3,964 nucleotides of DNA from Escherichia coli (GTDB lineage Bacteria > Pseudomonadota > Gammaproteobacteria > Enterobacterales > Enterobacteriaceae): NCBI RefSeq assembly GCF_003334385.1, contig NZ_QOWN01000090.1. One strand, written 5' to 3'. This document shows, piece after piece, positions 342 to 780 of the stretch (position 1 is its first letter; the number at the start of each line of letters is the position of its first letter). The notes beneath the pieces were generated by a model. That model made no database searches, was not told the DNA's origin, and was given only the letters and a program-made list of their open reading frames with translations. The translations under genes and the position numbers were made by a program.

Positions 342-428
342 GGGCCTCTGACGAACCCACAGATAGTGTGGTCTCATGCCCTTAGTTGCCCATATCTATT
401 TACGAATCCACCTTAAAGTCAATAGAAA

Positions 429-451
429 CAATACGACTCGCTAATGGGAGA
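429..451 (+). promoter_or_regulatory. Second T7-type promoter-like sequence, more diverged (predicted +1 at 446)
   Basis: CAATACGACTCGCTAATGGGAGA matches the T7 consensus at 19 of 23 positions. The ATACGACTC core and the GGGAGA initiation region are conserved. Same orientation as the first, about 110 bp downstream. Confidence 0.45.
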
Positions 452-589
452 GCGGTGACAAAAAGTTTTCCCTCTATGACAACTAACTGTAACTTATCGC
501 ATCCTTTCAGGGGCGGGATGACCAATTACAGACACCAAGCGTTCTACTTAAAGTGAATGCTTCCTGTGTGCTCTGGGTCAGTCGATAAG

Positions 590-780
590 TGAATAGCAAT
601 AGACATCATATTAACTATGGTCTCTGGTCTACAGGGGCTAAACTTAAAGTTTACTTAAAGACCTTAAAGTTATATTACTTGTTTACACAAGATAATAATA
701 AAAACTTAAAGAATAACTTTAAGAGTACTTATGATTATCTATCATTTAATCTTGTCATAATTCACTTTTGTAATAACTAA
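590..780. other. Strongly AT-rich tract, origin-like or regulatory
   Basis: Visibly the most AT-rich part of the window (roughly three quarters A+T by eye, not computed). It carries most of the CTTAAAG copies. The only ORF here (589..780) has an N/K/L/Y-rich translation typical of AT-rich noncoding DNA. Confidence 0.5.
642..723. repeat. Cluster of CTTAAAG heptamer repeats (iteron-like)
   Basis: Direct copies at 643..649, 654..660, 664..670 and 705..711, plus an inverted copy CTTTAAG at 717..723. Further direct copies lie upstream at 412..418 and 547..553. Three adjacent copies are spaced 11 and 10 bp apart, about one helical turn. Confidence 0.6.

Follow-up and report, generated by a model that had tools for sequence, protein, structure and literature searches.

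Bacteriophage T7 is the classic example of a virulent phage and has given rise to the most widely used expression system. Its primary origin of replication was reportedly described by Saito et al. in 1980, and by Fuller and Richardson in 1985, as two promoters together with a 61-bp AT-rich region. Plasmids carrying a T7 origin and a concatemer junction are said, from the work of Rabkin and Richardson in 1988 and of Chung and Hinkle in 1990, to be replicated by T7 and packaged as genome-length concatemers. Replication of T7 starts at phi1.1A/phi1.1B, the primary origin, with phiOR and phi6.5 as secondary origins (PMC8373140), and tandem T7 promoters act as stronger origins in vitro (PMC12796468). 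Here we analyse a stretch of 3,964 nucleotides of Escherichia coli DNA (contig NZ_QOWN01000090.1 of assembly GCF_003334385.1), hereafter the window, which carries an array of the heptamer CTTAAAG downstream of T7 promoter-like sequences, in the non-coding module of a 4.77-kb island at tRNA-Gly (glyU). The CTTAAAG copies are phased heptamer repeats typical of T7-group phages, and the array in the window is a short, eroded version of an array with an 11-12-bp period. The reading that we favour, and to which we give an even measure of belief and doubt, is that this array would be the AT-rich, phased part of an origin primed by T7 RNA polymerase in a satellite-like island. The make-up of the island suggests a device to exploit or sabotage T7-like phages, and it also carries an anti-T7 defence gene.

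The non-coding module contains the following features in the window:

319 to 341, + strand: P1, a T7 RNA-polymerase promoter-like 23-mer, TAATACGACTCAgTATgGGGAGA, with two mismatches to the consensus and a predicted +1 at 336
412 to 418, + strand: a heptamer copy between P1 and P2, poorly conserved
429 to 451, + strand: P2, a more degraded T7 promoter-like 23-mer, cAATACGACTCgCTAatGGGAGA, with four mismatches and a predicted +1 at 446
483 to 640, + strand: a conserved island-specific core, the best-conserved part of the module, ending in the invariant CAGGGGCT
641 to 780, + strand: the AT-rich heptamer array, with direct units at 643, 654, 663 and 705 and an inverted one at 717
784 to 801, + strand: a small conserved hairpin, GTGTCTCCACAAGACAC
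810 to 905, + strand: conserved block 2, a long imperfect hairpin with 30 predicted pairs and little covariation

An exact search of the window located CTTAAAG on the + strand at 412, 547, 643, 654, 663 and 705, and on the - strand (CTTTAAG on the + strand) at 717. A preliminary description of this DNA had listed the same copies, except that the one starting at 663 was placed at 664, one base off. Two more inverted copies are found at 188, within the DUF4145 gene, and at 2647, beside attR. The preliminary description had proposed comparing the number of copies with shuffles of the window. Nine copies in the whole window stand far above the 0.65 expected, and the maximum in 200 dinucleotide shuffles was three. 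Locally, the seven heptamers between 315 and 925 compare with 0.12-0.14 expected, a count that was reached in 0 of 5000 simulations, and the five heptamers in the 95 bp from 636 to 730 (22% GC) compare with 0.02-0.13 expected, five again being reached in 0 of 5000. Since the enrichment persists in local simulations at 22% GC, the local AT content is no explanation for it, and the concern that the heptamer might be just as frequent as that content predicts has been settled in the same way. Chance or AT-richness as the cause of the excess is ruled out by the global and local simulations together.

The seven copies between 412 and 723 had been treated as one set, which does not hold when the window is compared with related islands. 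The copy at 412 is restricted to the type represented by the window and the sister island L003, other variants reading CTAGAAG at this place. The copy at 547 (547-553) lies in the loop of a hairpin, AAGCGTTC/GAATGCTT, within the core of about 160 bp, and other variants have TTTAAAG, CTAAAAG, CTTAAAA or no heptamer there. These two are parts of other sub-elements, and the inverted copy at 717 lacks conservation. The pair at 643 and 654 directly follows CAGGGGCTAA and is retained, 11-12 bp apart, in nearly all island variants; these first two array units are conserved across 16 or more variants, including variants from metagenomes. Those at 663, 705 and 717 belong, as variable units, to a longer degenerate array. 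The triplet at 643, 654 and 663 had been described as spaced about one helical turn apart. Its spacings in the window are 11 and 9 bp.

That the copies form a real phased repeat array is borne out by the sister islands, which show 7-12 units with an 11-12-bp period. The units of L006, L278, L279, L020 and L083 read [C/A]TTA[A/T]AG or C[C/T]TA[A/G]AG in 7-12 copies, and are spaced by 11, 12 or 13 bp or by twice those distances. The array of L083 is a mixture of CCTAAAG, CTTAAAG and CTTAGAG, in many cases with ACC after the unit. The islands differ widely in the length of the array and in the sequence of its units. The non-coding module was found in 233 of 5426 complete E. coli genomes, chromosomal in every case, and it also turned up in a second enterobacterial genus (L083) and in 22 contigs from metagenomes. 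A scan of a genome collection with a 16-mer from the core gave mostly chance matches, the real ones being L020, L029, L030 and L083 only.

Promoters for the phage RNA polymerase, which characterise an origin of the T7 type, are present by sequence in the form of the predicted promoters P1 and P2. The best T7 matches of P1 are the phage's own promoters, and it has the same -5 G as the phi1.3 promoter of T7. The site equivalent to P1 is a perfect 23/23 T7 promoter in L003, L004, L006, L020 and others. P2 lies 110 bp past P1, and its equivalent, TAATACGACTCACTAAAGGGAGA, has one or two mismatches in L003-L005 and is perfect in L006. Altogether, between one and three perfect 23/23 T7 promoters are found at the P1/P2 positions of the sister islands. 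One clade adds the K11-type promoters AATTAGGGCACACTATAGGGAGA and AATTAGGTAGCACTATAGGGAGA. In L007 (4793-5370) and L287-L299, T7 promoters, K11-type GGGCAC promoters and GGTAGC-type promoters precede the same core and array. Three promoter specificities in one clade suggest responsiveness to several T7-group phages, and the T7 and K11 specificities would predict activation that is specific to the helper. L281 (3655-4270) has other promoter-like sequences, ACCCACACTATAGGGG once and AAACTATCACTATAGGG twice.

Counterparts of the array are found in the T7-group phages themselves. The T7 genome contains 25 copies of CTTAAAG against 5.5 expected. Its left end has 11 CCTAAAG units together with CTTAAAG/CATAAAG units at 175-338, and includes the string CTTAAAGTTTA, which the window has as well. 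Further heptamers follow phiOL and phi1.1B and precede the right repeat, and T3 is alike. We scanned IMG/VR for three CTTAAAG copies 2-7 bp apart, which retrieved mostly contigs of about 40 kb. The array was within 120 nucleotides of a T7-group promoter in 39 of 120 loci, and 34 of those 39 arrays followed the RNA-polymerase gene directly, at the phi1.1 position, which is the primary origin in T7. K11-type phages have the array in the orientation seen in the window, and phages with T7-type promoters have the complement at the same place. In the RefSeq genome of T3, the stretch 5682-5758 annotated as 'primary origin of DNA replication' is made of CTTTAAG-type units.

The sister arrays can also be aligned to these phage segments. 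The array of L007 matches T7 5930-6000 over 71 nucleotides with 74.6% identity (E = 6.7e-6) and that of L006 matches T7 5938-6005 (36.3 bits), both within the AT-rich stretch after phi1.1B. The array of L003 matches T7 423-492, after phiOL (E = 3.7e-5). Significance was judged against 300 composition-matched first-order Markov simulations, and each of these three alignments scored above all 300 simulations of its own array. The array of L278 aligns to T3 412-464, the segment downstream of phiOL.

From the repeats, their phasing and conservation, the promoters and the T7/T3 matches we infer a course of events in which the array acts at the DNA level, as the AT-rich stretch, readily opened and probably bent, of a T7-type origin. 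During infection by a T7-like phage, the phage RNA polymerase would fire from P1/P2. Transcripts reaching the AT-rich array would be passed to the phage DNA polymerase/helicase as primers, so that the island would be amplified, and the cargo genes would be expressed from the same P1/P2 transcripts.

A sequence resembling the T7/T3 concatemer junction lies further downstream in the window, followed by features of the right end of the island:

2403 to 2442, + strand: a mimic of the T7/T3 concatemer-junction left cut, ...AAAAATCTGAGCGTCTA/TCTAATAGT, with the predicted cut between 2433 and 2434
2621 to 2631, + strand: the exact 11-mer ACTGTAACCAA, found once per att arm in the same orientation (L001 9941-9951)
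2647 to 2653, - strand: the att-proximal heptamer CTTTAAGAA, an inverted pair with TTCTTAAAG beside attL
2682 to 2710, + strand: the attR core and right island boundary, a direct repeat of the tRNA-Gly 3' end

The stretch 2403-2442 is the best non-promoter match of the island to T7 (T7 39747-39786, 80% over 40 nucleotides, E = 2.6e-4 to 5e-4; window TTAAAATTTCCTACAAAAATCTGAGCGTCTATCTAATAGT, T7 TTAAAATATACCATAAAAATCTGAGTGACTATCTCACAGT), and it also matches T3 37951-37989 (E = 1.7e-4). In both phages the matched stretch includes the beginning of the right terminal repeat (T7 39778, T3 37978), reading TCTCA(C/T)AGT, which is the concatemer cut that makes the left end of the genome. The mimic overlaps the stop codon of the 158-amino-acid gene and is kept past the last cargo gene in L003-L007 and L278-L280, irrespective of the cargo. 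The counterpart of the other cut is in the integrase gene, where an exact 18/18 match to CTGTGTCCCT/ATCTGTTA, the right end of the T7/T3 terminal repeat with the class II pause signal ATCTGTT, is found in L007 (3052-3069), L029 (2488) and L030 (4412). ATCTGTT has a natural copy at the T7 concatemer junction (10.1101/2021.01.11.426313; 10.64898/2026.02.12.705533). The integrase-gene mimic sits in a linker that is variable at the protein level and rich in indels. ATCTGTTAGTGCTCC is retained in seven of eight islands, and the island of the window has a broken version of the mimic (L001 10522). All T7-type cis elements share the strand that P1/P2 would transcribe. Were the island circular or in tandem, their order would be promoters, core, array, cargo, left cut, attP, 5' int, right cut and pause signal, which is, as predicted from the sequence, a T7-like layout with a putative 'terminal repeat' of about 0.9 kb. 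In the proposed course of events, the downstream junction mimics would let the phage terminase cut and package concatemers, about eight units of 4.77 kb amounting to 38 kb compared with 39.9 kb for T7.

The main alternative to an origin is a role in concatemer processing like that of SRL/SRR, the T7/T3 heptamer arrays on either side of the terminal repeat. The heptamers would then be packaging-accessory repeats, a landing pad for the terminase (small subunit gp18) or an aid to processing, and would have no part in replication. The junction mimics just described fit this explanation, as do the heptamer strings at T7 175-338 and before the right repeat, with their T3 equivalents, the mixed units of L083 that are often followed by ACC as in the T7 SRL, and the presence in larger sister islands of several other short-period arrays, like those of phage genome ends. 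The array, however, adjoins neither mimic: the left-cut mimic is 1.7 kb downstream of it and the right one is in the integrase gene. Moreover, the significant alignments are to promoter-proximal AT-rich origin segments and not to SRL/SRR, and we know of no function assigned to SRL/SRR in T7 itself. On balance we consider such a packaging role unlikely.

The window carries only part of the island, and its remaining features are as follows:

1 to 87, - strand: the end of an IS4-like insertion sequence (IS) of the IS421/IS186 family, an 85-nucleotide inverted repeat with 3880-3964
88 to 314, + strand: the 3' part of the DUF4145 / PD-T7-4 anti-T7 gene, with the inverted heptamer at 188 inside
925 to 1629, + strand: cargo gene 1, 234 amino acids, weakly Ant/Rha-like (PHROG anti-repressor families, E = 1e-8)
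1930 to 2406, + strand: cargo gene 2, 158 amino acids, conserved in several islands (78-82% identity)

Matches to E. coli chromosomes place the window beside ygeQ. The counterpart region in strain H7 is 100% identical and uninterrupted by an IS, with the gene order tRNA-Gly, a tyrosine integrase of 535 amino acids, the DUF4145 gene, about 600 bp of non-coding DNA, two hypothetical genes and ygeQ. The island thus comprises an integrase, the PD-T7-4 defence gene, the non-coding module, variable cargo and attR, and attL and attR are marked by a 29-nucleotide direct repeat of the tRNA-Gly 3' end. The integrase, which has a Phage_integrase domain and an extra N-terminal DUF6538, is the only protein to be conserved throughout the islands (82-98% identity). 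The DUF4145 protein matches the PADLOC PD-T7-4 profile over its full length (E = 2.9e-100; full gene in L001, 11610-12239). PD-T7-4 came out of a functional selection for defence against T7, in a study which remarked that it 'often overlaps an integrase gene' (PMC9519451). The ends of the IS match multi-copy loci annotated as 'IS4-like element IS421 family transposase' and bracket the window as inverted ends. The left one truncates PD-T7-4, of which only the 3' 227 nucleotides are left in the window; the gene is intact in strain H7. With its mutated promoters, short array, broken pause signal and an IS in the defence gene, the copy in the window looks partly decayed. In the frame of ygeQ (glycoside hydrolase family 15; 2824-3903) a stop is found at 3658-3660, after which the frame resumes; it is a pseudogene in this strain. 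In strain 5735 (L005 1270-2600) the tRNA gene and the island are separated by a second integrase and a further element, a tandem occupancy of glyU.

Small size, an integrase with att sites and the lack of virion structural genes, all of which are seen in the 4.77-kb island, are features of phage satellites. The glyU islands may tentatively be regarded as true satellites of virulent T7-group phages, the first for this group, a proposal about which we are more doubtful than confident. They would combine helper promoters, a T7-type origin, both cut-site mimics and attP in a 'terminal repeat' of about 0.9 kb with no replication or packaging proteins of their own. T7 would transcribe, replicate and cut them and package them as approximately 8-mers, and they would re-integrate at tRNA-Gly.

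Several observations weigh against an origin in this island, or against its use by a phage. The array starts about 190 bp past P2, beyond the conserved core, compared with about 35 bp from the promoter in phages. The phage counterpart stretch doubles as the 5' leader of gene 1.1, and a role of the heptamer of its own in T7 origin function, as opposed to plain AT-richness, is unproven. The orientation of the heptamers varies by phage group, and in the islands with T7-type promoters it is that of the K11 type. An origin role does not account for the heptamers beside both att cores. The array of the window itself matches T7 5920-5949 with 26.9 bits only, a score reached by 25 of 300 simulations; because this match is weak, the assignment to an origin rests on homology with the sister arrays. 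Candidate T7 primase sites (GGGTC/TGGTC) at 575-629 were rejected, as they depart from the published flank rules and are partly unconserved. Finally, no attP junction, tandem or excised form was found in IMG/VR or in metagenome contigs, where short-read assemblies could miss it.

A further question is what binds the array. The preliminary description had suggested the Rha-like protein encoded just downstream, or a helper-phage protein. The former is cargo gene 1, which has no match in Pfam or NCBIfam; its C-terminal half is 50% identical to the protein of L281 named 'Rha family' by PGAP. The first cargo gene is of at least three types without detectable mutual similarity, namely the 234-amino-acid protein of the window, one of 170-187 amino acids, which is probably the protein annotated as KilA-N domain-containing in related genomes, and one of 163 amino acids. 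The array is present with each of these three unrelated cargoes, and L281 lacks it in spite of a Rha-family cargo, so that the general partner is not the Rha-like protein. Cargo gene 2 has no match in PADLOC, PHROGs or NCBIfam. The suggestion of a helper-phage protein was right at least in direction, as the array lies behind T7 RNA-polymerase promoters and has counterparts in T7-group origins and genome ends.

Another protein of the island could still be the partner. According to this explanation, a modified form of the iteron idea, the heptamers would be bound cooperatively by the N-terminal domain of the integrase, by a recombination directionality factor or by a cargo regulator, controlling excision, integration or cargo expression. 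A phased spacing of 11-12 bp fits cooperative binding to one face of the helix, the integrase with its additional DUF6538 is common to all islands, and an inverted pair of TTCTTAAAG surrounds the att core in all of them, with a third copy 40 bp into attL. This att-proximal context, however, differs from that of the array units (A/T-A-CTTAAAG), and a better arm-site candidate is available in the exact 11-mer ACTGTAACCAA, present in both arms, which is a candidate arm-type site of the integrase. Arrays of this kind are also present in virulent phages that lack an integrase, and the variety of first cargoes and the array-less L281 count against a cargo regulator as much as against the Rha-like protein. 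The explanation has been weakened by these observations, and we rate it as quite unlikely.

A role at the level of RNA has to be considered because, in the predicted transcript, the array has on either side a conserved segment that appears to be structured. The core of about 160 bp is better conserved than the flanking genes. Its consensus fold has multiple helices, one of which, ACTTATCG/CGATAAGT, shows a U-A to C-G covariation in one clade, so that the core is probably structured, as judged from this modelled fold. A search of 250-1000 against Rfam gave no family, even at E = 5, and comparison of the module with sequenced phages gave nothing past promoter-sized bits, the core having no homologue among them. 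A resemblance of the core to the T7 terminal repeat, seen by eye, was not recovered by an alignment search. Block 2, just upstream of the first cargo gene, is also found in L281, there with other promoter types and no array; by analogy with the sites after T7/T3 promoters it might be an RNase III-type processing site. A sigma-70 promoter in the array, similar to T7 A1, was rejected, as there is no promoter-like site on the + strand and the -35 equivalent is lost. Larger islands (L006 5390-5650; L278, L029, L020) have more short-period arrays downstream of the heptamers, with the units CTGTATGGCC (3-4 copies), TCTCTATAGGTC (about 5 copies), CCTAGAGAGAC (3-4 copies) and AATCAATACG (3 copies, running into a phi1.1A-like promoter).

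In such an RNA-level role, the heptamers would form an unstructured A/U-rich 5' leader or a translational enhancer, like the leaders of genes 1.1 and 10 in T7-group phages, or a spacer between structured RNA elements. Minus-strand copies (CTTTAAG) do occur in T7 8-30 nucleotides before many start codons, as in the gene 10 leader TTTAACTTTAAGAAGGAG, and the last unit of the phi1.1 arrays of phages overlaps the Shine-Dalgarno sequence. In the island, however, the array is about 200 nucleotides before the start codon of the cargo, the only adjacent open reading frame (731-760, 9 codons) is not conserved, and the occurrence of both orientations at the same place in different phage groups points to a role at the DNA level. 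We therefore find a leader function very unlikely. The least probable of the explanations, for which we see hardly any prospect, is that the heptamers are an inert relic, left over in an island that arose from DNA of a T7-like phage, such as a reduced temperate prophage of this kind, or in a pure defence island using T7 promoters as infection sensor: the decay of the window copy, the highly variable length and units of the arrays and the experimental selection of PD-T7-4 as an anti-T7 gene (PMC9519451) would fit, but the first two units and their spacing are kept in all clades and in another genus while nearby AT-rich DNA diverges, arrays grow by unit duplication and yet hold the 11-12-bp phase, which suggests selection on the repeat, and four different T7-type cis elements are retained in consistent orientation.

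An incomplete literature search brought up nothing on natural T7-promoter islands, on T7-like coliphages with satellites, on the heptamer strings or on any natural element parasitising T7, and a prior description is possible. If the origin reading and the satellite proposal are true, wild E. coli chromosomes carry perfect T7 promoters in a minimal hijacking kit, a pure cis-mimicry of promoters, origin and concatemer junction, and the satellite concept would be extended to strictly lytic podoviruses. The islands would also offer a natural setting in which to test the heptamer arrays and junction signals of T7 and T3, for which an explanation has long been lacking, and would account for the reported overlap of PD-T7-4 with an integrase gene (PMC9519451). 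Such islands would be of relevance to phage therapy and to strains used with T7 expression systems. Should the island merely be a defence cassette triggered by T7 polymerase, this would still be an unusual principle of sensing.

Compared with known systems, the array shares with iteron origins, to which it had been likened in the preliminary description, helically phased direct repeats in an AT-rich region. The data do not support a classical iteron origin. In place of tandem repeats of about 17-22 bp it has a 7-bp core with an 11-12-bp period and variable spacers, and the island has no initiator (rep) gene. Profile searches detected no Rep-like initiator family in any island protein, the cargoes being of Ant/Rha/KilA-N types and interchangeable, and the phage counterparts of the array work without a Rep protein.

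The island resembles phage satellites such as PICI, PLE, P4 and VEIME in its small size and integrative nature, in its integrase and tRNA att site, in lacking capsid genes and in a variable cargo that includes anti-phage genes. Unlike them it neither encodes a replication initiator nor has a repressor/derepression circuit, and it carries instead the promoters of the helper with origin-like and junction-like sequences, its packaging being predicted only; its helper would be a strictly virulent T7-group phage. The closest known kind are the VEIMEs, small integrative elements without capsid genes that are packaged as concatemers of 8-17 copies in full-size capsids (PMC9618062). The predicted concatemer of about eight islands in a full-size helper capsid would be similar. 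The laboratory plasmids with a T7 origin have the same minimal cis set, a T7 promoter/origin and a junction on a small replicon, whereas the island is natural and chromosomal, has an integrase and cargo, and its junction mimics are about 80% identical to T7.

The T7/T3 SRL/SRR resemble the array in their C[C/T]TAAAG heptamers, often followed by ACC, in direct repeats at about one helical turn and in a setting with terminal cut sites. They differ in the spacing, 13 bp in T7 and 11-12 bp in the island, and in that the island array is not beside the cut-site mimics. From the T7/T3 origins, phi1.1A/phi1.1B as the primary and phiOL/phiOR as secondary ones, the island differs by its location in a bacterial chromosome, by the 160-bp core between promoters and array and by arrays that are longer (up to 12 units) and more regular, and its origin activity is predicted from the sequence. 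The likeness to these origins consists in tandem promoters, 110 bp apart in the island and 75 bp in T7, followed by AT-rich units of the CTTAAAG/CTTTAAG type, in the significant alignment of sister arrays to T7 5930-6005 and 423-492, and in an annotated T3 origin that is made of the same heptamer.

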